Below the pieces are notes generated by a model. It made no database searches and had not been told where the DNA came from. It saw nothing but the letters and a program-made list of their open reading frames with translations. Below, one piece after another: positions 1,643 to 18,337 of a stretch of 22,240 nucleotides of DNA. This stretch comes from Phycisphaerae bacterium (GTDB lineage Bacteria > Planctomycetota > Phycisphaerae > SM23-33): contig JAIORC010000021.1 of NCBI GenBank assembly GCA_021108335.1, positions 1 to 22,240 of the forward strand. The letters are read 5' to 3'. Each line of letters starts with the position of its first letter. Position 1 is the stretch's first letter. The translations under genes were made by a program, and so were the position numbers.

Positions 1643-1646
1643 TCTG

Positions 1647-4118: not shown

Positions 4119-4218
4119 TTCGATACAAACAATTTCAGACAGTTTCTACAAATTGCCCTGGTACTCCGTCCCAGAGACAATAATGGGTGCCCCCCAGGGG
4201 GCGGTAAAAAAACGCGTC

Positions 4219-4254
4219 GGGTGCCGTGGCGGGAAGCGAAGCTTTCAGCCACGA
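4219..4254 (-). repeat. REP-like 36-nt core repeat, copy A1 in inverted orientation.
   Basis: It is the reverse complement of the consensus TCGTGGCTGAAAGCTTCGCTTCCCGCCACGGCACCC and identical to copy A2. Confidence 0.7.
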
Positions 4255-4292
4255 AAGAGAGACACACCATGGCAGATGGTATGTTTGGGTGG

Positions 4293-4320
4293 CATGGTCC
4301 CCTGGGGACCATGTGTTTTT
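4293..4320 (+). terminator. Candidate intrinsic terminator: 10-bp GC-rich stem followed by a T tract.
   Basis: catggtcccc-t-ggggaccatg is followed by tgttttt. It lies ~175 nt downstream of the stop of the 823-aa gene and inside the repeat element. Confidence 0.35.
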
Positions 4321-4544
4321 CGTCCCGCGAACCAGGTGCGAGGGTGGCACAGGTTTGCAACCTGTGCCGCGGTGGCCTGGGAAGGCCACCGCGCTAGGGT
4401 ACAAAGTGAGGCCATGAGGGATGGCGTAGAAATTGCGAATCGATCTTTCATGGCTACCCCGCAAAAAACGCGGGGTTTCCATGCCACCCGACATCGTGGG
4501 AAATTGTCGGGTGCCCCCCAAGGGGCTTTCTCGCAATAGTTACG

Positions 4545-4580
4545 TCGTGGCTGAAAGCTTCGCTTCCCGCCACGGCACCC
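4545..4580 (+). repeat. REP-like 36-nt core repeat, copy A2.
   Basis: tcgtggctgaaagcttcgcttcccgccacggcaccc. Its ends CGTGGC...GCCACG are themselves inverted, which is the palindromic character of REP elements. Confidence 0.7.
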
Positions 4581-4600
4581 ATTATTTTTTACGGGACAGA

Positions 4601-5875
4601 TTACCAGGAAGCCGCTACAAATTGCTCCAGCTCAGTTACCAGGCGGCTGGCGTGGTCGGCCAGAAGTTCCAGGCCTCCACGTTTGGGGCGGAAAGCGTTA
4701 TAGAAAAGAAATGCGGATTCGACCTCGTAGCCGCCCTCGTCATACGCCGAGGCTGTGGGCACATACCCGACTACGCCATTGGCCAAACCTACCGTGTAAA
4801 CTTTTTGCCACGTACTCGCGCGAACTATCTCCGTAAAAGTGGAAAAGATTTCCGCGTTGACACCCAGCAATACAACACCGCCAATCGCCAGGGCGAATAA
4901 TTCGATGTCTACATAATCGGCACCGTTGTTTTGCACGTACTCCGTCATCGACTCGCGCCAGGTCTCAACCGCGAGGCGATAATTTTCGCCCCAATCCGGA
5001 TCGTTGGCAAAGGAGAGGTATTGATCCGCATGGCTATTGATCTGTTCGACACTCCAGACATCCAGGGGCAGCGGAACGGTTTTTGTCAAGACTACCGGCG
5101 ACGCATTTTTTGCCGGCGCGCCTGTCGGTGCCTGTAGCAGTTTGTCTATAACGGACTCCGCCAATTGCCGGCTCCAATCCTTCATCTGCTCGAAATCGAC
5201 GCCGACTGTCGGCGGATTTATATTGCCGCACGCGCCGACGCACACCAGCGCCATCGGTTTACCGGGCAATTGTTCAGACAGAGCAATTGCGGCTTGCCCC
5301 GGGTAATCGGCGCTGGTCTGGTAGTCCTTCATGCAGACCGCGTGCATGGCATAATTAAGCACGACCGCTTTGAACGTATCATCAGTTCGCCGCCATCCAA
5401 TCGCCCCGACGCGCGGATCTGCATGGGCCGAAGCCCCCCGCCGAACTATTGCCAATTCATACAGGCCCTCGACGGTTACTGGCGTGCAGTTTTCGGTATT
5501 CGCCAGGGCATCGGCGGCAGCGGCTTGCATCCACTGTTTTAACTGCTCGACGTAGCCGGCATCGTATCGGCCACACCCGGTCAGGTGAACCACCACCGGG
5601 CCGGAGTGGGTATGCGTAGCCGAAACCATCACACGCGACGACGGCAAGCCCAGTTCCCGCTCGGCCCAGCGCCTGAAGTCATCGACGAAGCTCCGCTCGA
5701 AACCGAGCAAATCCGCGTGAAGCCACAATACGCGTTCGTCGCCTTCTTCCAGGTACAAAGCCCGGCAATACAACGGGTCGTGCACACCCGTCGAGGGGTG
5801 CGTGCGGTCGGCAAAGCCCGTTATGTCGCTGCCCGGCTTGGGTGTAATGTCTATCTGCGACGTTCCAACAATCAT
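4601..5875 (-). CDS. Hydrolase with a neutral/alkaline ceramidase N-terminal-like domain, 424 aa.
   Basis: ATG at 5875 overlaps the upstream TGA as ATGA. The N-terminal block MIVGTSQIDITPKPGSDITGFADR...HDPLYCRALYLEEGDERVLWLHADL resembles the start of the neutral ceramidase family (GxxxxDITP...G, hydroxy/acidic ladder). No signal peptide is visible. The functional call is made from memory of family motifs and has moderate confidence only. Confidence 0.6.
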   Translation of the reverse strand: MIVGTSQIDITPKPGSDITGFADRTHPSTGVHDPLYCRALYLEEGDERVLWLHADLLGFERSFVDDFRRWAERELGLPSSRVMVSATHTHSGPVVVHLTGCGRYDAGYVEQLKQWMQAAAADALANTENCTPVTVEGLYELAIVRRGASAHADPRVGAIGWRRTDDTFKAVVLNYAMHAVCMKDYQTSADYPGQAAIALSEQLPGKPMALVCVGACGNINPPTVGVDFEQMKDWSRQLAESVIDKLLQAPTGAPAKNASPVVLTKTVPLPLDVWSVEQINSHADQYLSFANDPDWGENYRLAVETWRESMTEYVQNNGADYVDIELFALAIGGVVLLGVNAEIFSTFTEIVRASTWQKVYTVGLANGVVGYVPTASAYDEGGYEVESAFLFYNAFRPKRGGLELLADHASRLVTELEQFVAASW

Positions 5876-7137
5876 GCAGTTGCTCCGACAGTTTTTTCCG
5901 CCGGTTCAGCCAGGCTGTCAAGGTTTGCGTGAACCTTTTCGAATGCGCGGATAATATCGTCCATATCCTTTTGCTCGCCAAGCAACAGACTTTGATACAT
6001 CCAGGCGCCCTGTTCGGTGCAAATCGTCTCGCAATTCGGGCAGTTCGTCCTGGTGTAGTCCAAATCTGGATGGTTATTTTTATATCCCGTGTAAGGGCCG
6101 AAGGCAAGATTTGTGAACACCGGTTGGCGGTACAGCGGCAGAACATAGCCCGCGCAGGCGGGAATGCCCTCCGCCTCGATTGCCGCAAGGAATACCTCAC
6201 GCGATACGCCAAGCTCCGCCGGGTTCAGGCGGAACAGGAACAGATGGCAGCCATGCCGGGTGCAATCGTCGCCGCGCTTTTGCAGGTAGATTCCGGACAG
6301 TTTCGACAGCCGCTCGACAAGATATTTCGCGTTCCGGTCGCGCCGCGCAGCCTGCTCGTCAAACCGGTCGAACTGGGCGTTGAGTATCGCGCCCTGGAAC
6401 TCGCCAAGACGATAATTCCCGCTGATAATGTGGTGCTCGTACCACTGGCCGTCTTCCGCGCGGCCACAATTGTGGATAGATCGGCATTCCCCGGCCAGGT
6501 CGTCGTCGCTGGTGATAACGATGCCGCCCTCGCCGCTGGTGAAGTTCTTGCTGGACTGGAACGAGAACGAACCCATGTGCCCGAGCGAGCCGACGCGCCG
6601 GCCTTTATATTCGGCCCCGTGTGCATGGGCGGAGTCCTCGATAACCGTAAGCCCGTGGCGATTGGCGATGTCCATGATCGCGTCCATGTCAGCCGGCAGC
6701 CCGCCGACGTGTACCGGAATTATCGCTTTGGTCCGATCCGTAATCGCCGCCTCGATGGCTTTGGGGTCGATGTTGAATGTCTCCAGGTCGATGTCGACAA
6801 ATACCGGCGTGGCGTTGGCTTCAACGACAGCCGTGGCGGTCGCGAGGAAAGTGTACGGCGGGACGATAACCTCATCGCCGGCTTCGATTCCCGCAGCCAG
6901 CAGCGCGATACGCAGCGAAACCGTGCCGTTTACCACGGCGATACCGTGGGCGGCGTGATGGTAATCCGCGAATCGCCGTTCAAACTTCGCCACTTCATCG
7001 CCACTCAGCCGGCCCCATTGGCCACTGTTCAAAACACGGGACAAGGCGGTTTGCTCTTCCTTACCGAAAATCGGCCAACTCGGAAAAGGTTCCGTCCGTA
7101 CAGGGGAACCGCCGTTAATTGCTAACTCTTCAGACAT
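5872..7137 (-). CDS. DegT/DnrJ/EryC1/StrS-family PLP-dependent aminotransferase, 421 aa.
   Basis: ATG at 7137 is preceded (minus sense) by aaggag 9 nt upstream. It carries the PLP-lysine block SFSFQSSKNFTSGEGG and a typical N-terminal NGG-P motif (AINGGSPVR). It has a 4-nt stop/start overlap with the downstream ceramidase-like gene, which points to an operon. Confidence 0.85.
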   Translation of the reverse strand: MSEELAINGGSPVRTEPFPSWPIFGKEEQTALSRVLNSGQWGRLSGDEVAKFERRFADYHHAAHGIAVVNGTVSLRIALLAAGIEAGDEVIVPPYTFLATATAVVEANATPVFVDIDLETFNIDPKAIEAAITDRTKAIIPVHVGGLPADMDAIMDIANRHGLTVIEDSAHAHGAEYKGRRVGSLGHMGSFSFQSSKNFTSGEGGIVITSDDDLAGECRSIHNCGRAEDGQWYEHHIISGNYRLGEFQGAILNAQFDRFDEQAARRDRNAKYLVERLSKLSGIYLQKRGDDCTRHGCHLFLFRLNPAELGVSREVFLAAIEAEGIPACAGYVLPLYRQPVFTNLAFGPYTGYKNNHPDLDYTRTNCPNCETICTEQGAWMYQSLLLGEQKDMDDIIRAFEKVHANLDSLAEPAEKTVGATA

Positions 7138-7401
7138 CTGCTACAGCTCCTTTACGCCTGGCTAAGTCCAGGTAACTTCTCGAATATATATATTGTCGCG
7201 AAAACGCTCACTTGTTGCATATGCGTTCCATTCTTATCATATCACAGTTTGTGGCCGTTCCAAGAATAAAATCAATTTGAGGCATTTTTTTATCATTACC
7301 GGCGATTCGCGCTGAAATAGCCGGAATTATGTGATAATAATCGCTTTGTCGGCCCGGTAAGGGCAACTGGGGTTCCTGATCGGAATATTTTCAAGCGGTA
7401 C
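7138..7401. promoter_or_regulatory. AT-rich divergent intergenic region. It probably holds the promoters of the aminotransferase operon and the ROK regulator. TTATCA-type motifs recur in it.
   Basis: About 40% GC against ~57% in the surrounding DNA. ttatcatatcaca at 7234-7246, tatcatta at 7291-7298 and the inverted copy tgtgataataatc at 7330-7342 occur in the same region. A run atatatatat sits at 7186-7195. Confidence 0.4.
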
Positions 7402-8634
7402 TTGTCAGGTGGGAAGATATCTGATAAAGTACCAGATATGGAACTTATGCAAAACCAACCCGGCAAATTGAATGAACAAACCCGCAAGCGTAACGTGAAT
7501 CGTTATGCGATACTTCGCATGCTTCATTTTGAGGAGACGTTACGCCGCGCGGAGCTGAGCCGTGAACTGAAAATCCGTAAGTCCAGCGTAACAAACATCA
7601 TAGCCGAATTGATCGACAACGGCGTGGTAGTCGCCAATAATCCGGATAAACTCCGCAGCAGCCTGAGCCTCAACACGGAAACGTACCACGTGCTCGTCGC
7701 GAGTATCTGCCCCAGCGAAATATTTTTCGCCCGCGTCCACCTCGACGGCTCCATCCAGAATATGCACGGCCTGGCCTTTGATCCGCATACCAGCCAGCCG
7801 GAGCAGATACTGGAAATGATCGCCGACGGTTTTCGGGAAGACATCCGGCGGGCCGACGGTATCGTAATGGGCCTGGGCGTAGCCGATCCGGGCATTGTTG
7901 ATCCGGAGGCGGGCGTCAGCCACTTTGCGGCGAACCTTCCGCACTGGAAAAACATCCCCGTCCGCCAGACGCTCGAATCGAAGCTCGGCAGGCCTGTGCA
8001 TGTCAACAGCGACATCCGCTGCCAGCTATGGGCCAACGCCTGGTTCAGCCGCTATATCAAGCGATATCGCAACATGCTGTACGTCGGCATTCTTGACGGG
8101 CTTGCCGCCGCGTCGATTATTCACGGCCAGATGGTCGTCGGCAACAGTTATTCGGCTGGCGAGTTCGGGCACATTTCCGCCGGTAACGAGATGCGGCCTT
8201 GTGCCTGCGGCAAGACGGACTGCCTGGAAACCTATTGCAGCGTCGGGGCGATTTTGGATGAGATCAAGCGTGTTCAGCCCGGCTTGGAGAAGATTTCTTC
8301 AATATCGGATGTTGCGAAAATCGCCCGCGAAGACCGCGTGGTTCGCAACGTTTTGGACAGAATCGTTCGCCGGCTTGCCGGTACGCTCAGCCCGATAGTC
8401 GCAGCCCTGGATCCCCAGGCGGTGATTATCGGCAGCGACGACATGGAGTTTTCCGCAATATTCGGGCAGTTTTTGCACAAGAATCTGCAAGCCGAGCTTG
8501 CGGGGCTGGATTCCGGCAACGTGGACATTCTCACCGGCGAGCCTGCCGACACCGCCACCATCAGGGGAATCGCCGGAATGGTAATCGAGCAATGCTTCCA
8601 TAACGGCGAACTGCAACTGCAATCCTGCGAATAG
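7402..8634 (+). CDS. ROK-family transcriptional regulator (NagC/Mlc/XylR type): N-terminal winged HTH fused to a ROK sugar-kinase-like domain.
   Basis: HTH block RYAILRMLHFEETLRRAELSRELKIRKSSVTNIIAELIDNGVV. The ROK zinc motif CACGKTDCLETYCS is present. The ORF finder start is TTG at 7402. The in-frame ATG codons at 7438 and 7447 are more likely true starts. Confidence 0.85.
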   Translation: MSGGKISDKVPDMELMQNQPGKLNEQTRKRNVNRYAILRMLHFEETLRRAELSRELKIRKSSVTNIIAELIDNGVVVANNPDKLRSSLSLNTETYHVLVASICPSEIFFARVHLDGSIQNMHGLAFDPHTSQPEQILEMIADGFREDIRRADGIVMGLGVADPGIVDPEAGVSHFAANLPHWKNIPVRQTLESKLGRPVHVNSDIRCQLWANAWFSRYIKRYRNMLYVGILDGLAAASIIHGQMVVGNSYSAGEFGHISAGNEMRPCACGKTDCLETYCSVGAILDEIKRVQPGLEKISSISDVAKIAREDRVVRNVLDRIVRRLAGTLSPIVAALDPQAVIIGSDDMEFSAIFGQFLHKNLQAELAGLDSGNVDILTGEPADTATIRGIAGMVIEQCFHNGELQLQSCE

Positions 8635-8700
8635 CCGCTGGGATACTACGAAACCATGCCGGGCGGCTCCTCCGCAAAATCGCTCTCGACGTAGCGACGG

Positions 8701-9969
8701 CTACTCCGGGGCTTTTATGGCGATGGCGGTTATGTCGTCTTTTTGTCCGCCGGGTGCGAAGTGTGTAACGGCTTGGCGGAGGTGGGAGATTATTTCCTGG
8801 GCTGATTGGCTGCGGTGCTTGCGGAGCATGGCGTTCATTCGTTCGATGCCGAACTCTTCACCGTCGGCGTTGGCGGCTTCGAATATGCCGTCCGTGGTTA
8901 TCACGGCGAAGTCGCCGGGGTCGAAGTCGAACGTGCATGTTTCCGTGAAGTCGGCGTCGGGCAATATGCCCAGCGGCACGGCTGTGGAGGAAACTTCGTC
9001 GAGCCTGTCTTCGCTTTGCTTATAGAACATCAGCGGGCCATGGCCGGCAGAGGCGTAGGTGAGCTTGCGGGCTTCGGGGTCCAGAATGCCCAGGAAGCAT
9101 GTAACGAAGCTGTCGTCGGGCAGGTCTTCGACCAGCAGGTGGTTAGCGGTTTCCATGATGTGGGATACCGAACGCGAATCGGCTGTGGACAGGTGTGCGC
9201 TGGCCCGGAGCATCGCGCGGGTCTCGGCGATTACCAAGGCAGGCCCAATGCCGTGGCCGGTCGCGTCGGCTACCACGAACGCCCAATGGCCGTTGGGCAG
9301 GGGGATAAAGTCGAACGTATCGCCACCGGTTTCGTCGGCAGGGTCGGAAAGCCCGGCGATGTCGAAGCCCTCGATTTCCGGCGGTTTTTCCGGCAGCAGG
9401 CCCCGCTGGATGTTCCGGGCAATCTCCATCGCCCGCTCCATTTCCTGCTTCTCCATGAAATGCTGAATAAGGTGCGCCCGCTGGATGACGACCCCAGCCT
9501 GCGCGCCGAGCGTTTCGGCGAGATTTATGTCGTAGTCCCGGAAGGCTCCGGACTTTTTGTTGAGCACCTGCAAAACGCCGACCAGCCCGCCGGAGTAATC
9601 CCGCAGGGGCACGGACATGATGTTCCGCGTACGAAAGCCGGTGTCCTTATCGACCTGCGGATTGAATCGCTCGTCGGCATAGGCGTCGGGCACGACGATA
9701 GTCTTACCGGTCTGGACGGTCTGCCCGCAGATGCCCTTATCGGCGGGCACGCGCAGGTCGTCCATGCCGGTGGCTATCCGGGCGACCAACTGGTTTTGCG
9801 ACTTGTCGTAGAGAAACAGCGTAGCCCGCTCGACCCGCAGCAGTTCGAGCGCGTGTTTGATAATCAGGCTCAGCAATTCGTCGAGATCGTCCGCGGCTAC
9901 CATCGCGCGGGAAATCGCCAGCAGGCTGGTGAGGTCTTTCATCGCGTTGTCATTGGCTTTGTCGGTCAT
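8701..9969 (-). CDS. GAF-domain-containing PP2C-type (SpoIIE/RsbU-like) serine phosphatase.
   Basis: The N-terminal GAF-like region (LDELLSLIIKHALELLRVERATLFLYD) is followed by the PP2C/SpoIIE signature GGDTFDFIPLPNGHWAFVVADATGHGIGPAL and the C-terminal TTDGIFEA block. The preferred start is ATG at 9969 with gagga 5 nt upstream. The longer TTG-initiated ORF to 10026 is less likely. Confidence 0.8.
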   Translation of the reverse strand: MTDKANDNAMKDLTSLLAISRAMVAADDLDELLSLIIKHALELLRVERATLFLYDKSQNQLVARIATGMDDLRVPADKGICGQTVQTGKTIVVPDAYADERFNPQVDKDTGFRTRNIMSVPLRDYSGGLVGVLQVLNKKSGAFRDYDINLAETLGAQAGVVIQRAHLIQHFMEKQEMERAMEIARNIQRGLLPEKPPEIEGFDIAGLSDPADETGGDTFDFIPLPNGHWAFVVADATGHGIGPALVIAETRAMLRASAHLSTADSRSVSHIMETANHLLVEDLPDDSFVTCFLGILDPEARKLTYASAGHGPLMFYKQSEDRLDEVSSTAVPLGILPDADFTETCTFDFDPGDFAVITTDGIFEAANADGEEFGIERMNAMLRKHRSQSAQEIISHLRQAVTHFAPGGQKDDITAIAIKAPE

Positions 9970-10125
9970 GGTGTCCTCGCCGTTGAGTATATTACGTTTG
10001 GCGTCGAGTTGCCAAGAAACATCCAATATTAAAGCATTAAAGTTTTGTGACTTTTTGAGACGATAAAGTTCATTGGTACGGATACCCTGGGGATCAATAT
10101 CGTGGTCTGAAGTAGTGGAGTAAGC

Positions 10126-10596
10126 ATGACCAAGCGAGAATTGATCGACGAAATAATGGAGTTAAATCATTCGGCGGATCCAGGGTTCCTGGCTCGGTTC
10201 GACGATATTGAACTGAATAACTATCTGGATCATCTATCTTTGTTGCAGGCTCCCCGGCTTGAGGGCGATCCGCACAGGTACGATAAATATTTCCAGGCCG
10301 AGCCGGCGGATTCGCCGTGTGCGGTAGCCGTGGCTGAGCTTCCGTGTCAAAGCGACGCGGCGATAGCGGCTGATCTGGCGACGTGGCGGGATGAAACTCC
10401 GGCAGTCCCGGCAACCCCACGCAGCCTCAGCGAAGAATGGCAGATGCGGGTGGATCGCTTCGCGGATCACCTCAAGACCCAGCCGGATGAAGTCCACACG
10501 CCGGAACTGGTACAGACCTCTGTCAAAGAATCCGCGACGTGTGTATCCAGCCGGCTGGACGAAGGCCGGGATGAAAGAGAAGGCTGGCTGTTCTAA
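10126..10596 (+). CDS. Hypothetical acidic protein of 156 aa, no family recognised.
   Basis: ATG at 10126 has ggag 7 nt upstream. It lies divergently to the phosphatase gene. Composition is acidic (D/E-rich) and there is no TM segment. Codon usage matches its neighbours. No motif support. Confidence 0.45.
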   Translation: MTKRELIDEIMELNHSADPGFLARFDDIELNNYLDHLSLLQAPRLEGDPHRYDKYFQAEPADSPCAVAVAELPCQSDAAIAADLATWRDETPAVPATPRSLSEEWQMRVDRFADHLKTQPDEVHTPELVQTSVKESATCVSSRLDEGRDEREGWLF

Positions 10597-10604
10597 GCAA
10601 CAGT

Positions 10605-10672
10605 ATCGTGGCTGTCGCTAACGCTCCCGCCACGGCACCCGCTGAGCGGTAGCAACAGCCACGATGTTTGCC
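10605..10672 (+). repeat. REP-like core copy B (10606-10640), embedded in a larger hairpin formed with a partial inverted copy, acagccacgatgtttg.
   Basis: tcgtggctgtcgctaacgctcccgccacggcaccc matches the consensus. atcgtggctgt at 10605-10615 pairs with acagccacgat at 10655-10665 as an 11-bp stem. It sits between the 156-aa ORF stop (10596) and the ankyrin gene stop (10759). Confidence 0.6.
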
Positions 10673-10758
10673 AAGCCGCCCGCCAACTACCGCGGATATG
10701 CCCCGCGCTGGCCATCGCCGTCATCGCCACCGCAGCCAACCGCCGGCTCTCAAAAATC

Positions 10759-13707
10759 TCAGTGCGTGGCCCCCGCCTTTTTGAGCAGCTTGACGATTTT
10801 CGGGCTGCCACCGCCATAACACGATTTTGCCGCCATTAACGCCGTTCTGCCACTTTTGGTCTTGGCATTTACATCGGCACCTTTGTCCAGCAGTAGTGTG
10901 ACTATTTTCATATTGCCATACCGCGATGCTGCCGCCATTAAGGCTGTACTGCCGTTTTTGTCTTTGGCGTTTACGTCGGCACCCTTGTTAAGCAACAACT
11001 TTACGGTTTTCGTATCTTTTTTCCGCGATGCCGCCACCATCAAAGCCGTTTTGCCCATTTCGGTTTTGGCGTTTACGTCGATACCCTTGCTCAGCAACAA
11101 ATTTACGACTTCTGTCTTGCCTCTCCGCGATGCCGTTATCAAGGCCGTGCCTTTTTTTGTTTTGGCGTTTATGTCGGCACCCTTGTCCAGCAACAGTTTG
11201 ACGATTTTCGTATTGCCTTTCGACGAAGCTGCCATCAAGACCGTGTAGCCACTTTTTGTTTTGGCGTTTACATCAGCACCCTTGTCAAGTAACAGTTTGA
11301 CGATTTTCGTATTGCCTTTTGACGAAGCTGCCATCAAGATCGTGTAGTCAGTTATTGTTTTGGCGTTTATGTCGGCACCCTTGTCAAGTAACAACTTTAC
11401 GACTCCCGTGTTGTTTTTCCACAATGCCACCATCAAGGGTGTATCGCCGTTTGTGTTTCCGACGTTTACGTCGGCACCCCTGTCCAATAACAACTTTACG
11501 GCTTCCATGTTGCTTTTCCGCGATGCCACCATCAAGGCCGTGTTGCCTTTTATGTCTCTGACGTTTACGTCGGCACCCCTGTCCAACAGCAGCTTGACGG
11601 TTTTTCTATGGTCACTCCGCAATGTCGTTATCAAGGCCGTGCCTTTTTGTGTTTTGGTGTTTACGTCGGCACCCTTGTCCAACAACAACTTTACGATTTT
11701 CGTATTGTTTTTCCGCGATGCCGCCATCAAGGCCGTGTAGCCACTTTTGGTTTTGGCATTCACATCTGCACCCTTGTCCAGCAACAATTTTATGATCTCC
11801 GTATTGCCCCTTCCCGATGCCGTTATCAAGGCCGTGCCCTTTTTCGTTGTGGCGTTTATATCGGCGCCTTTGTCCAGCAACAATTTTATGATTTCCGTAT
11901 TGCCCCTTCCCGATGCCGTTATCAAGGCCGTGCCCTTTTTCGTTGTGGCGTTTATATCGGCACCCTTGTCCAGCAACAATTTTATAATTTCCGTATGGTC
12001 CCCTTCCGATGCCATTATCAAGGCCGTGCCCTTTTTTGTTTTGGCGTTTATGTCGGCACCCTTGTTAAGCAACAACTTTACGACTTCCGTATGGCCTCCC
12101 TCCGCAGCCGCCATCAAGGCCATATTGCCGTTTTTGTCTTTGGCTTTTACATCGGCACCCTTGTCCAGCAGCAGTTTGACGGCCTTCGCATGGCCTCCCC
12201 CCGAAGCCTCTATTAAGGGCGTGGTGCCCCAATCAGTTTTGGCGTTTACATCGGCACCTTTGTCCAACAACAGTTTAACGATCTTCGTATGGCCTTTCAG
12301 CGAAGCCGCCATCAAGGCTGCACTTTTGGCTTTTACGTCGGCACCCTTGTCCAACAGCAGTTTGACGGTCTCTACATGGCCTCCCCCCGAAGCCGCCACC
12401 AAGGCTGTACCGCCCCAGCGAGTTTTGGCTTTTGTATCAACACCTTTGTCCAATAACAGCTTTGCGATTTTCGTATGGCCTCCCCTCGACGCATCCATCA
12501 AGGCCGTATAACCACCCTTGGTTTTAGCATTCACATCGGCGCCCTTGCTCAGCAACATTTTTACGAATTCCGTATTGCCTCCCTCCGAAGCTGCCATCAA
12601 AACCGTGTAGCCATTTTTGGTTTTGGCTTTTATATCGGCACCCTTGCCCAGCAGCAACTTTACGGTTTTAGTATTGCCTCTCAGTAATGCTGCCGCCATC
12701 AGGGCGGTGTAGCCCCCGCCATTTTTGGCGTTCACATCAGCGCCATTGTCCAGCAACAGCTTGACGATCTTCGTACGGCCACGTCGTGATGCCGACCACA
12801 AGGCCGTGTAGCCTTTTTTGTCTCTGGCGTTTACTTTGGCACCTTTGTCCAGCAACAACTTGACGATTTCCGCATTGCCTTTCCGCCATGCCACTATCAT
12901 CAAGGCCGTAGAGCCACTTTTGGTTTTGGTGTTCGCATCCGCGCCATTGTCCAGCAACAGTTTGGCGATCTTCGTACGGCCATCCTGCAATGCTTTTATC
13001 AAGACCATTTCTCCGCGTGGGTATCTGGTGTTCGCATCGGCCCCCTTGTCCAATAACAGTTTAACGATCCTTGTATGGCGTTCCCGCAATGCCTCCGTCA
13101 AGGCCCTACTTCCGAATGTTCCGAATGTGTCGGCGTTTACCTTGGCACCTTTGTCCAGCGACAGTTTGACGACTTCCGTATAGCCTCTCCTGGAAGCCCT
13201 CTCCAAAACTGTTTCGTGTCCGTATATGCTTTTGGCGTTTACGTCTGCACCCTTGTCCAGCAACAGTTTGACGATCTCCGTATTGCCTCGCCGTAATGCT
13301 ATCCACAAGATCGTCTCGTCACCTTTGCGTTTGGTATTTGCATCAGCACCTTTGTCCAGCAATAGCTTGACTGTCTTCGCATGGCCTTGCTGCACAGCTT
13401 CTATCAAGGCCGTACAGCCAGATTTGGATTTGGCTTTTGCGTCGGCACCCTTGTCCAGCAACAGCTTGACAATCTTCGCATGGCCTGTCTGCGACGCATT
13501 CATTAGGGCTGTTCTGCCATTTTCGTCTCTGGCGTTCACATCAAGCCCGGTTTGAAGGAGTTTCTTTACTTTTTCCGCATCTCGAGCCCAGATGGCCTGG
13601 CGAAGTTCTTTGGGGTCGGCTGGCTTGTTTATCCAAATGCCCACGCCGCATGCCAGAATCAGCCCCACGACGACGAGTTTGACGATGTTGCTTTTCATTC
13701 GATTCAT
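10759..13707 (-). CDS. Ankyrin-repeat protein of ~983 aa with about 28 ANK repeats and an N-terminal signal-anchor/TM helix.
   Basis: The ORF is continuous and has 33-residue repeats of the form G-TALM-AS--GH--IVKLLLDKGADVNAKTK-. The N-terminus MNRMKSNIVKLVVVGLILACGVGIW is hydrophobic. The likely start is ATG at 13707 with ggag 6 nt upstream. The longer ORF to 13794 lacks an SD. Confidence 0.85.
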   Translation of the reverse strand: MNRMKSNIVKLVVVGLILACGVGIWINKPADPKELRQAIWARDAEKVKKLLQTGLDVNARDENGRTALMNASQTGHAKIVKLLLDKGADAKAKSKSGCTALIEAVQQGHAKTVKLLLDKGADANTKRKGDETILWIALRRGNTEIVKLLLDKGADVNAKSIYGHETVLERASRRGYTEVVKLSLDKGAKVNADTFGTFGSRALTEALRERHTRIVKLLLDKGADANTRYPRGEMVLIKALQDGRTKIAKLLLDNGADANTKTKSGSTALMIVAWRKGNAEIVKLLLDKGAKVNARDKKGYTALWSASRRGRTKIVKLLLDNGADVNAKNGGGYTALMAAALLRGNTKTVKLLLGKGADIKAKTKNGYTVLMAASEGGNTEFVKMLLSKGADVNAKTKGGYTALMDASRGGHTKIAKLLLDKGVDTKAKTRWGGTALVAASGGGHVETVKLLLDKGADVKAKSAALMAASLKGHTKIVKLLLDKGADVNAKTDWGTTPLIEASGGGHAKAVKLLLDKGADVKAKDKNGNMALMAAAEGGHTEVVKLLLNKGADINAKTKKGTALIMASEGDHTEIIKLLLDKGADINATTKKGTALITASGRGNTEIIKLLLDKGADINATTKKGTALITASGRGNTEIIKLLLDKGADVNAKTKSGYTALMAASRKNNTKIVKLLLDKGADVNTKTQKGTALITTLRSDHRKTVKLLLDRGADVNVRDIKGNTALMVASRKSNMEAVKLLLDRGADVNVGNTNGDTPLMVALWKNNTGVVKLLLDKGADINAKTITDYTILMAASSKGNTKIVKLLLDKGADVNAKTKSGYTVLMAASSKGNTKIVKLLLDKGADINAKTKKGTALITASRRGKTEVVNLLLSKGIDVNAKTEMGKTALMVAASRKKDTKTVKLLLNKGADVNAKDKNGSTALMAAASRYGNMKIVTLLLDKGADVNAKTKSGRTALMAAKSCYGGGSPKIVKLLKKAGATH
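11786..12075. repeat. Three near-identical 96-bp tandem repeats inside the ankyrin CDS.
   Basis: 11786-11881 and 11882-11977 differ at ~3 positions. A third, more diverged unit follows. They encode KKGTALITASGRGNTEIIKLLLDKGADINATT twice verbatim (32-aa units). Confidence 0.75.
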
Positions 13708-13847
13708 AATCAACTCCGTAAAAATCGTGAACGTACCAAAGATGTAGGGCCGGTGATTCTGCCGAGGGCAGGCATGCCCTCGTGGTTCACCCATGCGCAG
13801 GCGGAAACACCCACCCCGTCACCGGAGAATTAACTGCTCTTGTAACA

Positions 13848-13882
13848 TCGTGGCAGAAAGCTTCGCTCCCGCCACGGCACCC
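13848..13882 (+). repeat. REP-like core copy C.
   Basis: tcgtggcagaaagcttcgctcccgccacggcaccc. It lies in the 280-bp spacer between the flotillin stop (14076) and the ankyrin start. Confidence 0.65.
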
Positions 13883-13904
13883 TGTCAAAGTAAATCGCGG
13901 GCCA

Positions 13905-14029
13905 ATTGCGCGGCGGCCAGGGATGGCCGCCGCGCGATATGCGTCTTATGCTGGGCCGGGTGCCATGCTTCTGCTTGCAGAAGCATGCTGTCTCGCATCC
14001 ATCATGGCGACCCCTGCGGTGTCGCCATG
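13905..14029. other. Cluster of three strong stem-loops in non-coding DNA.
   Basis: 13905-13938 has a 15-bp GC-rich stem gcgcggcggcca/tggccgccgcgc with loop ggga. 13964-13987 is catgcttctg-cttg-cagaagcatg. 14003-14029 is catggcgac-ccctgcggt-gtcgccatg followed by ccatgccacccaa. They could be terminator or attenuator structures for the upstream minus-strand flotillin operon, or part of the repeat element. Confidence 0.4.
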
Positions 14030-14075
14030 CCACCCAATTTGTTATTTTGCTTCGCCGGGCGGCATGCCTGGGAAA

Positions 14076-15611
14076 CTATTTTTCGCTGCCCTGATCTTTT
14101 TGGGGTTCCCCGGTTGTTTCGGCTTGTGCGTTTGCTTCCTTGGCGATTTTGCCGAGGAATTCCGGCAGTTCCAGGCCGACCTGTTTTGCCAGTTCGTGCA
14201 TCGGCGGCAAAGCGCCCATTAGACGCTGGCCGAGGTTCTTCATGCCGCCGCCCTCGCCGCCACCGTCCCAGATGAAGACCTTTTCGATCGGCAGATCCTG
14301 GATGGCCTGGGCCTGTATGGACGCGATCTGCTTGAGTTTTTCGACCACCAACAGCGAGGCTGCGCCTTTGGTGTCGCCGGTGGCGTCGATGAGGTGCTGA
14401 TAGCCCTTGGCCTTGCCGTCCAGGATGGCTTGCTCGCCCTGGCCTTCGGCGGTCATTCGGGCGATCTTTGCCTTGGCGTCGCCCTCCGCGATGAGGATTT
14501 TCTGCTCTTTCTCAGCGTCGGCGGCGATGATGACTTTGCCCTTCTCGGCTTCGGCGGGCACGATTACTTCGGCGTTGAGGCGAGCCGCTTCGCGTTGGGC
14601 GCGGGCTTCCTCTGCCTTCTTCTCAGCCATCTGCTCGGCGACGCGGACAGCGCCGGTGGCTTCCCGTGCGGCGGATTCCGACCGCTGGCGGGCGGTCTGC
14701 TCGGCGACTTCCTGGTTGGCGTTATAGGCAGCCTTTTTGGCGTTGGCGACGGTTTCGGCTTCGACGGCTTGGGCTTCCAGGCCGGCTACCTGTTGACGTT
14801 TGTCGCGTTCTGCGGTGGTTTCGCCGATGTCGGCAGTGGCGTTGGCGGCGGCGACTGCTACGCGGGTATCTCGCTGCCGCTCGGCGACGCCGGTTTTACC
14901 GGATTTTTCCTGCTCGGCGACGTCGATATTGGCTTGGTTGATCGCCTCCGCGGCGGCTTTTCGGCCCAGGGCGATGATGTACCCGGACTCGTCCTCGATG
15001 TCGCGAATGTTGACGTTGATGACCTGCAGGCCGATCTTTTCCAGTTCCAGGGAGACGGCTTCGTTGACCTTGCCCATGAACGCCTGGCGGTCGCGGTTGA
15101 TATCCTCGATTTTCATCGTGGCGATGACGGCACGCATTTGGCCGAGGATGATATCCTGTGCCTGTGCCTGTATCTGCACGCGGGAAAGCCCCAGCAGGCG
15201 GACGGCGGCGCTCTGCATGATGCCCGGCCGATTGGAGATGGCTGCGGTAACGGTCGTCGGTACGGTTACGCGGATGTTTTCCTGCGAGAGTGCGTTTGAC
15301 AGGTCAATCGGCACGACGAACGGTTCGAGGTCGAGATATTCGTACGCCTGAAACAGCGGCCATATGAACGCCGCCCCGCCGTGGACGCACTTGGCGGCAC
15401 CGCTGCCGGTCTTGCCGTAAATCACGAGAATTTTATTGGCTGGGCAGCGTTTGTACCGCTTGGCCAGGGTGATGAACAGAACGAGGATAATCACCCCGAT
15501 AATCAACGCCAGTATGAGTGCTACGGGCATTCCAGCCTCTGTTTGTGTTTCAGCGGCTCTGCGGCTGCCGGCTACCGCCAGCGGGAGGGATGACATAAGA
15601 GATTCGATCAT
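14076..15611 (-). CDS. floT: Flotillin-like SPFH/Band-7 protein (FloT/YqiK family), 511 aa.
   Basis: An N-terminal TM helix (PVALILALIIGVIILVLFITLA) is followed by an SPFH domain and a long A/E/Q-rich coiled-coil tail typical of flotillins. ATG at 15611 overlaps the NfeD stop as ATGA. aagga lies 9 nt upstream. Confidence 0.85.
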   Translation of the reverse strand: MIESLMSSLPLAVAGSRRAAETQTEAGMPVALILALIIGVIILVLFITLAKRYKRCPANKILVIYGKTGSGAAKCVHGGAAFIWPLFQAYEYLDLEPFVVPIDLSNALSQENIRVTVPTTVTAAISNRPGIMQSAAVRLLGLSRVQIQAQAQDIILGQMRAVIATMKIEDINRDRQAFMGKVNEAVSLELEKIGLQVINVNIRDIEDESGYIIALGRKAAAEAINQANIDVAEQEKSGKTGVAERQRDTRVAVAAANATADIGETTAERDKRQQVAGLEAQAVEAETVANAKKAAYNANQEVAEQTARQRSESAAREATGAVRVAEQMAEKKAEEARAQREAARLNAEVIVPAEAEKGKVIIAADAEKEQKILIAEGDAKAKIARMTAEGQGEQAILDGKAKGYQHLIDATGDTKGAASLLVVEKLKQIASIQAQAIQDLPIEKVFIWDGGGEGGGMKNLGQRLMGALPPMHELAKQVGLELPEFLGKIAKEANAQAETTGEPQKDQGSEK

Positions 15612-16288
15612 GATTGCGTTTCCTTTGCATTAGAGGTTTTTTGAAAATTTTCGGAAGATTCGGATTTTTCAATGGTTTTAACTTCTATGGTATTTGGGCT
15701 GAGCACTCGCGTAACGGTTATCGGCGTGCCTGCCGGGATTACCGCGTCCGTTGCGCCGCGGGCCTTGAAAACCTGCATCACGCCGCTGACGGTTACGCGT
15801 GCCTCGCCCATGCCGGCGGAGGGGATGTCGATATAGGCAGTGCCTTCGGTGCCCACGCAACTGGCAAGGCTCATGTTGCCGCTTTCGGTCATGCGGCGCA
15901 TCAGGTGGAAAATCATCGCTACGGCAATCATCGCCACCGCGCCCCAGGCGGTTGCCAGCGCGACGGCCCATTGTAATTCTTTGCCGCCTTGGAGGTACAT
16001 CGCCCCCGCCCAGGAAAACAGCGTGCAAAACGCCAGTATCGAGCGAACGCTCAGGAGTTTGAAGGCCGCCACCGAATCGAGGGCGTCGTGGTCGATATCG
16101 TGATCAAAATCGTGATCGATATCTCCGTGGGTGTCGTAGTCGTGCGCGTCGGCGTCGATTTCATCTTCGCCGCCGCCCAGGCCTATCAACGCGGCAATCA
16201 ACTGCCAGACAAAGAAAACGCTGAAAAATGCTGCCGCAACGTAAAACCCCTGATTGATACCGTTCAGGTTATGCCACCATTCCGCCAT
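15608..16288 (-). CDS. NfeD-family membrane protein (YuaF/YqiJ-like) and flotillin operon partner. It contains a His/Asp-rich low-complexity insert.
   Basis: Two N-terminal TM helices are followed by a C-terminal OB-fold-like beta segment (EARVTVSGVMQVFKARGATDAVIPAGTPITVTRV). The gene is translationally coupled to the flotillin gene. Its SD aaggaga lies 6 nt upstream of ATG at 16288. The segment DEIDADAHDYDTHGDIDHDFDHDIDHD is encoded at ~16075-16170. Confidence 0.8.
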   Translation of the reverse strand: MAEWWHNLNGINQGFYVAAAFFSVFFVWQLIAALIGLGGGEDEIDADAHDYDTHGDIDHDFDHDIDHDALDSVAAFKLLSVRSILAFCTLFSWAGAMYLQGGKELQWAVALATAWGAVAMIAVAMIFHLMRRMTESGNMSLASCVGTEGTAYIDIPSAGMGEARVTVSGVMQVFKARGATDAVIPAGTPITVTRVLSPNTIEVKTIEKSESSENFQKTSNAKETQS

Positions 16289-16618
16289 GTCATTCTCCTT
16301 TGTGTCGAATTACATCGGGACTCACTTGTCGGTACAATGTCCGACATTGACGGCTAGGATACTCCACGAGGCAGGCGTTGGCAAGAATCTCTCCGCGGCG
16401 AATGGGATTTTTTGCCCGATTCGGGCGTTTGGCGATATTAAGCGGGAACCGAAAAAAAACATTTTTTTCTTCTTGTTATTTTCTCTAATCGTGCAAATAA
16501 TTAAGAGTCAAGTTTGGGCGGCTGTTATGCCGATTACCGGATTTGTAATGGCGTACTTTTGGATGGCTTGGAGGGCCTCTGGGAAGAGGCAAAAAAGCTG
16601 TCGGAAGGAGGATAGGGA

Positions 16619-16801
16619 ATGCGAGGTTACAGGCCTAGTTATTTCCACGTGCGGAGCGAAGATGTTGTCGACGAGCGCATTCGTGCCAAGCAGGAGAATG
16701 TGCAGCGGTACACAGTTCGTGTCGAGCGGGGCGTACCCCTGTTCGATGTCGGAAGTCAGCAGCAGGGGCCATCGCCAGATAGTCCATTTGCAGGCCGCTG
16801 A
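16619..16801 (+). CDS. Candidate orphan small protein of 60 aa. Uncertain.
   Basis: There is a perfect SD aggagg 7 nt upstream of ATG at 16619, inside a 716-bp gap between divergent genes. I recognise no homology. Codon bias is only moderately gene-like. Confidence 0.2.
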   Translation: MRGYRPSYFHVRSEDVVDERIRAKQENVQRYTVRVERGVPLFDVGSQQQGPSPDSPFAGR

Positions 16802-16927
16802 TTTTCCGTTCGACTGTGTTTGCCGCGATTGGCGATGCCAGCGCTTCTGAATGCAAAAATGCAAGGTAGTTCCCTCCACAGGGGATAAATTGCCCGGCGT
16901 ACCGGCGATTGCGGCGGTTTTCTATAC

Positions 16928-16954
16928 TTATCATGCCGCGGCTTTGGGTATACT
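16928..16954 (+). promoter_or_regulatory. Possible sigma-70-like promoter for ispE.
   Basis: ttatca at 16928-16933 and tatact at 16949-16954 are separated by a 15-nt spacer. It lies ~50 nt upstream of the preferred ispE ATG at 17005. This is pattern-based only. Confidence 0.25.
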
Positions 16955-17004
16955 CTCTACACCGTCCGGGTAAACACTCGGCAAGTAAGGAAATTCCCAT
17001 CGTT

Positions 17005-17922
17005 ATGCCGGAAGATAACGCCGCCAATTCGATTTGCTGCACGTTACGTCCCGCTGTCGAGCGGGCGGATGACGGGCTGTTGCGGCTTTACGCTCCAGCC
17101 AAGATCAATCTGAACCTGCTGGTAGGCCCGCTGGGCGCCGACGGCTATCACCCGCTGGATTCGCTCGTAGCCAAAGTCTCGCTGTATGATTGTCTGGAAC
17201 TGCGCCTTCGGGACGACGGCAGGCTGGAGTTTTCCTGCGATGGATTCGATTGCGGGGCGGATTCGAAGAATCTCGCGATGCTGGCTGGGCAAATGCTAGC
17301 CGAGGGGCGGACTGTTCCGGGGGCGGACATTCTGCTGAAGAAGTACATTCCGCCGGGTGGCGGGCTTGGCGGCGGTTCGTCCGACGCAGCCACTGTCCTG
17401 GCTGGCCTGAATGACCTGTGGGAGCTGGGGCTGCCGGCGGACGAACTGTCACACTTGGCCGGGCGGCTGGGCAGCGACGTGCCGCTGTTTCTCGGCCCGG
17501 CGGTGGCGCGAATGACGGGTCGAGGCGAGCAATTGGCTCCGATTGACGTCTACCCTTTCCGGGCAGTGCTGATTCTGCCGGAAGTCGCTTGTGCAACCGC
17601 CGCGGTGTACAAAGCCTTCGACGCCGCCGGCTCGACCCGCATGCCGGAGCAACTGGACGTCCATCTGCTTACCAGCCCGCCGTCGCAATGGCGAGATATG
17701 CTGGTCAATCAACTTGAATCTCCGGCGATGGAATCTGCCGGCGAACTGGCTGAGTTGCGGGATGCGCTCGGAAAGGCATTGCCGTTGCCCGTCCACATGA
17801 GCGGCAGCGGCAGCACGCTGTTCGTCCTCTGCGACAACCAGGCCGAGGCGACGGACACGCTGGAGCGAATACCAAAGCCAATCCAAAGCTGCTGCCGCAT
17901 AGTGCGAATGAATTCATGGTAA
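17005..17922 (+). CDS. ispE: 4-(cytidine 5'-diphospho)-2-C-methyl-D-erythritol kinase (MEP pathway).
   Basis: The N-terminal PAKINLNLLVGPLGADGYHPL is the IspE motif. The GHMP-kinase ATP loop PPGGGLGGGSSDAATVLAGL is present. The start is moved to ATG at 17005 (MPEDNA...) because the reported 16909 start lies upstream of the putative promoter and adds a 32-aa extension with no counterpart in IspE. Confidence 0.85.
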   Translation: MPEDNAANSICCTLRPAVERADDGLLRLYAPAKINLNLLVGPLGADGYHPLDSLVAKVSLYDCLELRLRDDGRLEFSCDGFDCGADSKNLAMLAGQMLAEGRTVPGADILLKKYIPPGGGLGGGSSDAATVLAGLNDLWELGLPADELSHLAGRLGSDVPLFLGPAVARMTGRGEQLAPIDVYPFRAVLILPEVACATAAVYKAFDAAGSTRMPEQLDVHLLTSPPSQWRDMLVNQLESPAMESAGELAELRDALGKALPLPVHMSGSGSTLFVLCDNQAEATDTLERIPKPIQSCCRIVRMNSW

Positions 17923-17929
17923 TAAAGCC

Positions 17930-17970
17930 CGGTGCCGTAGTGGGAGCGCAGCGACAGCCACGATGTTTGA
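17930..17970 (-). repeat. REP-like core copy D in inverted orientation, with the adjoining CAGCCACGATGTTTG 15-mer shared with copy B.
   Basis: The reverse complement of 17930-17963 is tcgtggctgtcgctgcgctcccactacggcaccg, which matches copy B apart from ~4 substitutions and indels. It starts 8 nt after the ispE stop. The same spacer contains caaaccatgccacccaaac (18006-18024) and atgccacccagccatgatgtttg (18037-18059). Confidence 0.55.
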
Positions 17971-18224
17971 ACTTCGCGCGGGACGAACAACACATGGCTT
18001 GCAAGCAAACCATGCCACCCAAACTATTAAACTCCGCGCGGCGGTCTTCCCAGGCCGTCGCGTATCACCCACGACCGTAGGGTGGGTGCTCCCGCCCACG
18101 TTGGAACCGGGAAAAACACACGGCTCCCAGGGGATTATGCCACCCAGCCATGATGTTTGCTGGAGAAGAATTTCAAGGTAGGGCTTGACCGGAGCGGCTT
18201 AAATTGCTAAAAGGGTTCCTCCCA

Positions 18225-18298
<74 letters not shown>

Positions 18299-18303
18299 GT
18301 CGC

Positions 18304-18337
18304 AAAAAACGTTCCGGAAATCCCGGGACGTTTTTTA
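18304..18337. terminator. Bidirectional rho-independent terminator.
   Basis: Stem aacgttccgg / ccgggacgtt (10 bp including one G-U) has loop aaatc. It is flanked by aaaaaa on the 5' side and tttttt on the 3' side, so it can terminate the tRNA transcript and the convergent mannosidase transcript. Confidence 0.7.

Follow-up and report, generated by a model that had tools for sequence, protein, structure and literature searches.

Four intergenic spacers (4119-4600, 10597-10758, 13795-14075 and 17923-18225) in the 22,240-nucleotide (nt) contig JAIORC010000021.1 of a Phycisphaerae bacterium carry recurring short motifs, among them CATGCCACCC and CAGCCACGATGTTTG. This contig, taken at its whole length, is called the window here. 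The motifs are non-random and real. Our analysis indicates that they are probably the conserved ends of one superfamily of repetitive extragenic palindromic (REP) units, a REP/REPIN family that resembles bacterial interspersed mosaic elements (BIMEs) and belongs to a known kind of element.

Architecture of the repeat units

Two types of unit were recognised. The CATG-type unit has the structure CATGG-(variable stem-loop)-CCATG/CCACCC, in which the slash marks a boundary between stem, tag and flank. CATGCCACCC consists of the stem foot (CCATG) and the unpaired 3' tag (CCACCC) of this hairpin, and all exact copies come after a hairpin that opens with CATGG and closes with CCATG. The 35-nt core common to the spacers is built alike, as CGTGGC...GCCACG/GCACCC, i.e. 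CGTGGCTGAAAGC-TTC-GCTTCCCGCCACG/GCACCC, and the consensus over both types is CRTGG...CCAYG/SCACCC. CAGCCACGATGTTTG is the untagged end of the core (5' arm and outside flank) on the opposite strand. It is the reverse complement of CAAACAT/CGTGGCTG, which forms the core flank and 5' arm in the unit c5 (17930-17969) and in a partial copy of the core in inverted orientation (10644-10670). The initial annotation had described the motifs as a second, independent set of reusable modules. This description does not hold, since CATGCCACCC and CAGCCACGATGTTTG are the two ends of one palindromic unit type.

The units are imperfect palindromes about 20-35 nt long, each with a fixed foot, a variable upper stem and loop, and an unpaired tag on one side. 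On the opposite strand, a unit reads as a GGGTGS tag (GTGG or GTGC abutting the stem) followed by the palindrome. With the pattern C[AG]TG.{5,32}CA[CT]G[GC]CACC, 10 units were detected in 31.6 kb, all of them non-coding: five CATG-type units in the window, one in the DNA that extends beyond it, and four core copies. These ten strict units have 7-11 paired positions each. The inner stems are wholly different among copies (GTCCC, GCTTG, GCGACCCC, CTTCTG and GCTACCCCGC), and the pairing is kept.

In the literature used here for this superfamily (Di Nocera 2013, PMC3733652; Quentin 2018, PMC6006769), a REP is a short palindrome of extragenic location whose 5' GT[AG]G tag is unpaired. The window units fall, as hairpin-forming palindromes, within 20-40 nt and occur in inverted doublets and clusters, as REPs do. 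The CATG-type units B1, B2, B4, B5 and B8 (coordinates below) read GG-GTGG/CATGG and carry the GT[AG]G tag.

Copies and positions of the short motifs

Four exact copies of CATGCCACCC were found against about 0.04 expected, at 4287-4296 (-), 4480-4489 (+), 14026-14035 (+) and 18011-18020 (+). When one mismatch was allowed, there were 7 matches against 1.68 ± 1.32 in shuffled sequences, and 7 were reached in 0 of 100 shuffles. The initial annotation had rightly counted four copies; its coordinates for three of them (4284-4293, 4481-4490 and 14021-14030) were 1-5 nt off. The extension to CCATGCCACCCAA is true of three copies, as it had been described (4287, -; 14026, +; 18011, +), and the copy at 4480 reads CCATGCCACCCGA instead. 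The near-copy ATGCCACCC exists as well, at 18137-18145 (with TATGCCACCC at 18136-18145), 100 nt away from the position given before (18037-18045).

CAGCCACGATGTTTG is present in exact form at 10656-10670 and 17955-17969, in agreement with the initial annotation, and with one mismatch (CAGCCATGATGTTTG) at 18145-18159. With up to two mismatches, five matches were obtained against 0.10 expected; the two-mismatch matches (1035 and 3484) are coding sequence of tandem paralogues and stand outside the repeat family. The third copy of the shorter unit GATGTTTG was confirmed, at 18152-18159 and not at 18052-18059, which is again a shift of 100 nt, and a fourth was found within coding sequence, at 7592 (-). 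The fusion ATGTTTGGGTGGCATGG had been placed correctly at 4281-4297.

By the gene map, all exact copies of CATGCCACCC and CAGCCACGATGTTTG are non-coding, as had been stated. The motifs had also been said to be confined to spacers with the 35-nt core. Inside the window this is the case for the four spacers; beyond it, one further spacer contains three CCACCC-tagged units, and the core is absent from the 165 readable nt of this spacer in the 9.3 kb past the window end. A fixed motif position relative to the core was not found, the core-to-unit distances being 17 to 121 nt. As to the kind of element, the proposed likeness to BIME-type composites was correct: in these spacers, short palindromic units of either orientation are clustered and mixed with other repeated hairpins.

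Association of tag and hairpin

The organism was recognised in the European Nucleotide Archive (ENA) assembly ERZ26872896 and in Logan SRR15668623 through exact-protein matches. About 80 kb of its DNA were read: the window, 9.3 kb past the window end (ERZ26872896 NODE_18) and parts of NODE_1731, NODE_60 and NODE_467. One allelic difference was found in these ~80 kb, in the contig NODE_3624 described below. About 20 units are distributed across 6 spacers.

The 7.4 kb of non-coding DNA contain 23 copies of the tag SCACCC and the 72.4 kb of coding DNA contain 57, the coding count being inflated by GGCACCC codon repeats in a 1011-amino-acid (aa) open reading frame (ORF; 10759-13794). Of the 23 non-coding copies, 12 have a hairpin of 6 bp or more no farther than 2 nt from the tag, versus none of the 57 coding copies. 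The tag directly abuts a hairpin of at least 7 bp in 11 of 80 cases in the organism versus 23 of 1131 in unrelated control loci (483 kb in all), which were matches to a 19-base core pattern in genome contigs, that is, chance matches (at least 65) in high-G+C genomes. With composition-matched permuted tags in the same organism, 0-3 tag-hairpin cases were obtained, and with the register-shifted SCCACC, 6.

Doublets and clusters

The units are present in both orientations. An inverted doublet with the tags outward lies at 13958-14035 (GGGTGC/hairpin, 15-nt spacer, hairpin/CCACCC; 72 nt tag to tag). At 17930-18020, the degenerate core unit c5 and the CATG-type unit B2 form an inverted heterodoublet, also with the tags outward and 85 nt tag to tag. 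The sole repeat-bearing spacer found on NODE_60 contains a degenerate doublet of a CATG/CACG-type and a core-type unit, 84 nt apart, beside a tRNA-Leu gene. The motifs and the core co-occur in spacers because core-type and CATG-type units pair as inverted doublets of standard geometry. Furthermore, the spacer 4119-4600, which folds with z = -11.3, holds a nested cluster (4185-4580) of c2, B1, B8, other hairpins, B4, m2 and c1.

Turnover between strains

The ENA contig NODE_3624 represents a second strain and is 99.5% identical to window positions 2450-8622 (6.1 kb). The alignment differs in 36 columns, and 32 of these are located in 4434-4526. In B4 of this strain, the 35-nt hairpin is swapped for CCCCCAAGGGA, and the tag and flanks are unchanged. 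In m2, GCCCCCCAAGGGGC is replaced by ACCCCCCAGGGGGT, which is a compensatory change from G..C to A..T plus a loop change. Outside 4434-4526, the two strains differ by four substitutions only (C>T, G>A, G>A and A>G), within 13 nt at 6241-6253 in the gene for the DegT aminotransferase, a pattern that resembles a small conversion tract.

Independent assemblies stop inside units. A Logan contig terminates at 10634 in c4, and ENA and Logan contigs terminate at 13980 and 14009 in the doublet of B7 and B5. Since multi-copy repeats cause such breaks, these positions suggest further copies in the genome.

Units in relatives and metagenomes

In an IspE homologue search, the nearest relatives were about 63% identical and none was closer. 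One relative (ERZ21862645 ctg38507l), with 60% IspE identity, contains CATGCCTGCaaacaacGCAGGCATG/GCACCCAAAA, one CATG-foot unit with a GCACCC tag. The hairpin, at 17230-17278 (-), has a duplicated tag after it (GCACCCAAAAAATT-GCACCCAAAATTGG), with a T-run before and A-runs behind, the reverse of the terminator layout. Another relative (Joint Genome Institute [JGI] 3300024175) has two duplicated long spacers at 4106-4727 and 12159-12592, one with a run of N, whose hairpins CCATGGCTTCAGCCATGG, CCACGGCTGAAGCCGTGG, AGCCCGTTTTAACGGGCT and GGGCGTTAAAACGCCC are of the window style with different sequences.

A metagenome scan with the pattern CATGG-N7-27-CCATGCCACCCAA yielded at least 120 loci. When at least 8 pairs were required for a hairpin, 60 of 127 sequences among the matches listed were hairpins versus 10% after shuffling of the inner sequence, and these 60 units had 35 distinct inner arms. 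Among the same matches, an inverted GGGTGS-tagged partner was found for 33 of 55 evaluable units. The distance between the tags is mostly 68-97 nt, which agrees with the geometry of the window doublets (72 and 85 nt). The full 35-nt core had no match in a separate metagenome scan. In one locus (JGI Ga0209163_1000410, 3680-4830), three REPIN-like doublets stand about 500 nt apart with other repeats between them (e.g. CCGTCATCCCGACCGGAGGGCCGAAGGCCCG...), forming a long composite tandem repeat region.

The non-hairpin matches are due to chance, many of them in coding DNA. A 42-nt class was rejected as coding chance matches; its translated motif GLGGMGGAQP presumably reflects a resemblance to a conserved urocanase-like protein sequence. 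A start codon at the ATG in CCATGCCACCC (MPPN/MPPK) was also rejected, since an ORF of at least 100 aa was opened by 6 of the 60 hairpin units only. No protein family recurs beside the units in more than 4 of 54 loci among the matches listed, and the d(GCGAAGC) mini-hairpin loop is present in 2 of the 60 units only.

One metagenomic locus (L198, a JGI metagenome contig) contains units on both sides of a transposase gene. The gene at 1468-2142 (minus strand) encodes a REP-associated tyrosine transposase (RAYT), with 95 bits for NCBIfam NF047646 (cut-off 80, E 3.7e-27), 24.9 bits for Pfam Y1_Tnp (cut-off 23), an E of 1.4e-6 for TnpArep of PDB 4ER8, and the motifs EHVH, WQ and YIHANP. Among NCBIfam models, REP_Tyr_transpos scored 95 bits versus 16 bits for IS200. 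Two GGGTGG/CATGGCCAAGCGAAGCGCCGCCATG units lie on one side and two CATGGCGGCGCT...GGCCATG/CCACCC units on the other, with the tags outward. This is the classical REPtron layout. The stem-loop of the flanking units has GCTTCGCTT in common with the core of the window. The complete REPtron occupies 1383-2210, with two GTAGGGTGG/CATGG... units downstream and two ...CCATG/CCACCC units upstream of the RAYT gene; on the downstream side, a canonical GTAG stands immediately before GGTGG.

Individual units and their gene setting

Spacer 4119-4600: The mini-palindrome m1 (4185-4201, -) was assigned with low confidence; on the plus strand, the tag GGGTGC abuts a short G+C palindrome, CCCCCAGGGGG. It is followed by the core-type unit c2 (4219-4253, -), plus strand GGGTGC then CGTGGCGGGAAGC-GAA-GCTTTCAGCCACG. 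This unit is an exact inverted copy of c1 (4546-4580, +), the core-type unit of the sequence given above, and the two form an inverted repeat of 36 nt with 100% complementarity. Between them, B1 (4281-4329 with flanks, unit proper 4287-4313, -) is CATG-type, reads CGCGGGACGAAAAACA/CATGGTCCCCAGGGGACCATG/CCACCC/AAACAT on the minus strand and includes ATGTTTGGGTGGCATGG. B8 (4342-4366, -) has a perfect 8-bp stem that abuts the tag, GGGTGG/CACAGGTTtgcAACCTGTG on the plus strand. The CATG-type unit B4 (4449-4489, +) reads CATGGCTACCCCGC-aaaaaac-GCGGGGTTTCCATG/CCACCC, i.e. CATGGCTACCCCGCaaaaaacGCGGGGTTTCCATG/CCACCC, and the mini-palindrome m2 (4509-4526, -) reads GGGTGC then CCCCCAAGGGGC on the plus strand.

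Spacer 10597-10758: The core-type unit c4 (10607-10640, +) reads CGTGGCTGTCGCTAACGCTCCCGCCACG/GCACCC. The inverted partial core copy (10644-10670, -), composed of the outside flank and the 5' arm, is CAAACAT/CGTGGCTGTTGCTACCGCTC on the minus strand and holds CAGCCACGATGTTTG at 10656-10670. Over 22 nt it is 91% complementary to 10605-10626.

Spacer 13795-14075: The core-type unit c3 (13849-13882, +) is CGTGGCAGAAAGC-TTC-GCTCCCGCCACG/GCACCC. The left half of the doublet 13958-14035 is B7 (13958-13987, -; plus strand GGGTGC/CATGCTTCTGcttgCAGAAGCATG), and the right half is the CATG-type unit B5 (14003-14035, +; CATGGCGACCCCtgcGGTGTCGCCATG/CCACCC).

Spacer 17923-18225: The degenerate core unit c5 (17930-17969, -) is cGGTGC/CGTAGTGGGAGCGCAGCGACAGCCACG/ATGTTTG on the plus strand and holds CAGCCACGATGTTTG at 17955-17969. 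The CATG-type unit B2 (17977-18024 with flanks, unit 17993-18020, +) reads ...AACA/CATGGCTTGcaagCAAACCATG/CCACCC/AAAC. A decayed unit, B3 (18119-18145, +; CACGGCTCCCAGGGGATTATG/CCACCC), belongs to a repeat that matches 4281-4321 at 83%. It overlaps the fragment 18145-18159 (-), minus strand CAAACAT/CATGGCTG, which is the one-mismatch copy of CAGCCACGATGTTTG with a CATGG foot replacing CGTGG.

A third family of repeated hairpins, CGCGGYGGCC-WGGGAW-GGCCRCCGCG, was found at 4368-4393 (+), 13909-13934 (+) and 18037-18062 (-). It has a GGA loop (CAGGGAUG at 13917-13924) and no GGGTG tag, and a similar hairpin, AGGCCATgagggATGGCGT, is located at 4409-4427. This family could be a BIME-like filler motif or a CsrA-type binding hairpin.

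The tagged spacer about 9.2 kb past the window end (positions 1-165 of its locus, same organism) begins at the start of the locus and contains three tagged units in tandem and in one orientation. The first two are each followed by the 33-nt conserved linker CCACCCAAyATTGryAATTTATwCGCCATTCyT, and their hairpins differ (CTGCCTTCGGCAG and CATGGCGACCCCTACGGTGTCGCCATG).

The window is the whole contig of a metagenome-assembled genome (MAG), and its gene content is ordinary chromosomal: DegT aminotransferase, ROK regulator, GAF/SpoIIE phosphatase, Band-7 protein, IspE, tRNA-Ala, GH38 mannosidase and a protein of 27 x 33-aa repeats. The last is encoded by the 1011-aa ORF at 10759-13794 (-), which is made of about 27 tandem 99-nt (33-aa) repeats with 60-92% mutual identity and is ankyrin-like by period. 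At 2-1642 and 1647-4118 (+) there are tandem paralogous genes with 87-94% DNA identity, within whose repeat the contig NODE_3624 terminates. A search of 5.8 billion proteins gave only four homologues of them, and two of these (P0121 and P0123) have a recorded Pfam match to Ulvan_lyase_C, weak for P0121. A clean bidirectional intrinsic terminator, AAAAAACGTTCCGG-aaatc-CCGGGACGTTTTTT, is located at 18304-18336 between the tRNA-Ala gene and the convergent GH38 gene. Thus, canonical terminators coexist with the REP-type hairpins.

Weighing of the REP assignment and its alternatives

Several observations weigh against a REP/REPIN family. Neither tblastn nor the gene lists showed a RAYT gene in the ~80 kb of readable DNA of the organism, the window included, and a RAYT gene flanked by units was found in one instance only among at least 120 metagenomic loci. 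Core-type units and B7 read GG-GTGC/C, which is off-consensus at position 4 of GT[AG]G, and the stems of the weak units m1, m2 and B3 are too short or decayed for confident assignment. The doublet of NODE_60 lies between divergent protein-coding genes, in the spacer that also holds the tRNA-Leu gene, and is a possible exception to placement at gene 3' ends. Moreover, about 48 kb of the other contigs of the organism contain no exact copy and one degenerate doublet only. The repeat family is thus possibly of moderate size or unevenly distributed.

The first alternative, which we consider rather unlikely, is a cis-acting role of the hairpins in RNA: as stabilisers of the 3' UTR, as weak intrinsic terminators or as RNA hairpins to which proteins bind, they would be retained at gene ends by selection and would not be mobile DNA. 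The position of the units is in line with this: a gene 3' end adjoins all five repeat-bearing spacers of the window and its extension, and none of the four divergent spacers there bears units. In addition, all five core copies in the window read GGGTGC then the hairpin in the sense of the gene whose 3' end adjoins the spacer. However, over all units the orientation relative to the nearest upstream gene follows transcription in 12 of 17 cases only, which is not significant, and the doublet of NODE_60 stands between divergent genes.

Also in favour of this alternative, the spacer 4119-4600 is very strongly structured (z = -11.3), and the top terminator-like matches are B1 and B2 on their GGGTGG strands, a hairpin followed by GTTTTTCG (B1, plus strand) or GTTGTTCG. 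Nevertheless, in the terminator scan only B1 (4292-4314, +) and B2 (18015-17992, -) passed. T-rich tails are limited to these two units; core-type units, B4, B5 and B7 have no T-run and do not qualify as intrinsic terminators, and a genuine bidirectional terminator is already present at 18304-18336. With Rfam 15, only tRNA-Ala passed the gathering score. No other family reached E ≤ 1 except RsmW, which matched the GGA-loop hairpins at chance level (26.4 bits versus a gathering score of 52, E = 0.77), and a small RNA of the CsrA/Rsm type was rejected on this ground. Finally, the same units flank a RAYT gene with their tags outward. An RNA role and a REP origin do not exclude each other, since the REPs of E. 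coli combine the two. Once transcribed, the hairpins of the window may act as 3'-end stabilisers or weak terminators.

It is less probable still, and in our estimate improbable, that the motifs serve a host protein as boxes for DNA binding and are kept for chromosome organisation. The protein would be of a kind proposed for BIMEs, such as a nucleoid protein, gyrase or an IHF-like factor. Protein-binding boxes were the alternative offered by the initial annotation. The invariant tag and CATG foot around a free inner stem do resemble a protein-recognition signature, and this signature is kept in the relative with 60% IspE identity and across many metagenomes. An essential architectural site would look different: most spacers have no units, about 48 kb are without an exact copy, and the units are polymorphic between near-identical strains. 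The sole protein found linked to the units is the RAYT. Protein-binding boxes agree with the REP assignment insofar as REP-associated transposases recognise a tag together with a hairpin.

A segmental duplication or a larger miniature inverted-repeat transposable element (MITE), e.g. 4157-4608 as an element of about 450 bp with long terminal inverted repeats and the motifs as passive remnants, is very improbable. The 36-nt perfect and 35-nt 83% inverted repeats that bracket the spacer 4119-4600 would be its arms, but these are themselves REP-type units and are also found singly elsewhere. Longer stretches are common to different spacers, yet the spacers do not have their interior in common as one block: neither a flanking direct duplication of 4157-4608 (no target-site duplication was seen) nor a second copy of the block in 80 kb was detected. 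Passive duplication also leaves unexplained the diverse paired stems with a constant tag and their recurrence in unrelated metagenomes. CRISPR, attC and tRNA-like readings found no support in the sequence.

Proposed mechanism and implications

A REP/REPIN family remains the probable identity of the units. GT[AG]G-tagged REP elements, REPIN doublets and their mobilisation by RAYT/TnpA_REP were reportedly described by Nunvar in 2010 and by Bertels and Rainey in 2011. From the homology with TnpA_REP of E. coli and from the REPIN model, we infer mobilisation by a RAYT in this Phycisphaerae genome. The units would be recognised, now or formerly, in the form of single-stranded DNA hairpins. Their tag and stem foot would be the signal for a RAYT-type HUH/Y1 nuclease, which would cut the DNA and rejoin it at this point. 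In this way, doublets could spread, be reshuffled and turn over in intergenic DNA. The difference between two near-identical strains almost only in hairpins would be explained by such a RAYT-driven spread and turnover of doublets.

More tentatively, the GGGTGG tag, the fixed CATG foot and the near-free inner stem might mark a distinct, widespread REP/REPIN lineage, possibly with its own RAYT subclass, whose transposase would recognise no more than the tag and the first 4-5 pairs of the stem. If so, hairpin "cassettes" would be rapidly exchangeable, which would fit the replacement of a whole hairpin and the one-step compensatory change between strains that are otherwise about 99.9% identical. 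A distinct lineage of this sort would mean that uncultured Phycisphaerae, along with other environmental bacteria, have a REP system in active turnover.

A REP/REPIN family would explain the repeat-laden spacers of the MAG and the assembly breaks exactly there. To our knowledge, REPs are poorly catalogued in Phycisphaerae and other environmental genomes. The signature GGGTGG/CATGG...CCATG/CCACCC, in doublets of about 70-95 nt, should be usable for REP/REPIN annotation in such genomes. In its plainest form, the result is probably another RAYT-linked REP family, with very diverse stems and turnover visible between strains, and it opens no new question.

Comparison with known systems

As with the subterminal hairpins of IS200/IS605 elements and the small non-autonomous elements derived from them, in which a hairpin and an adjacent guide or cleavage sequence form the Y1 HUH recognition unit on single-stranded DNA, the window units combine a hairpin with an adjoining tag. 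In contrast to IS200/IS605, the window elements contain neither a transposase nor tnpB and do not enclose a cargo between a left and a right end, and the enzyme of the metagenomic locus L198 is RAYT-type.

The spacers share with the BIMEs of E. coli the intergenic palindromic clusters, the alternating orientation, the interleaved short conserved motifs (here the GGA-loop hairpin) and the location mostly downstream of genes. However, the window units are unrelated in sequence to the Y/Z palindromic units or linker motifs, and they have no fixed linker grammar.

The closest comparison is with REP/REPIN elements. In Opitutus terrae, the tag is GTGG in most GTAG-20 units, and several REP families coexist there and in Rhodopirellula baltica; REP subfamilies differ through complementary stem changes, and the units form head-to-head or tail-to-tail dimers and clusters, which also flank class-2 TnpA_REP genes (PMC3733652, PMC6006769). 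The window units differ from REP/REPIN elements in a longer conserved tag (GGGTGG) followed by a fixed CATG/CGTG foot, in a core-type subfamily with GTGC and not GT[AG]G, and in unusually diverse inner stems (35 arms in 60 metagenomic units among the matches listed). Nevertheless, they agree with them in size (20-35 nt), in the imperfect palindrome, in the unpaired 5' tag abutting the stem (GTGG, as in most GTAG-20 units of O. terrae), in their extragenic position, in inverted doublets and clusters, in complementary stem changes and in coexisting subfamilies. A RAYT gene flanked by inverted units, as seen in the metagenome locus L198, is a further likeness.

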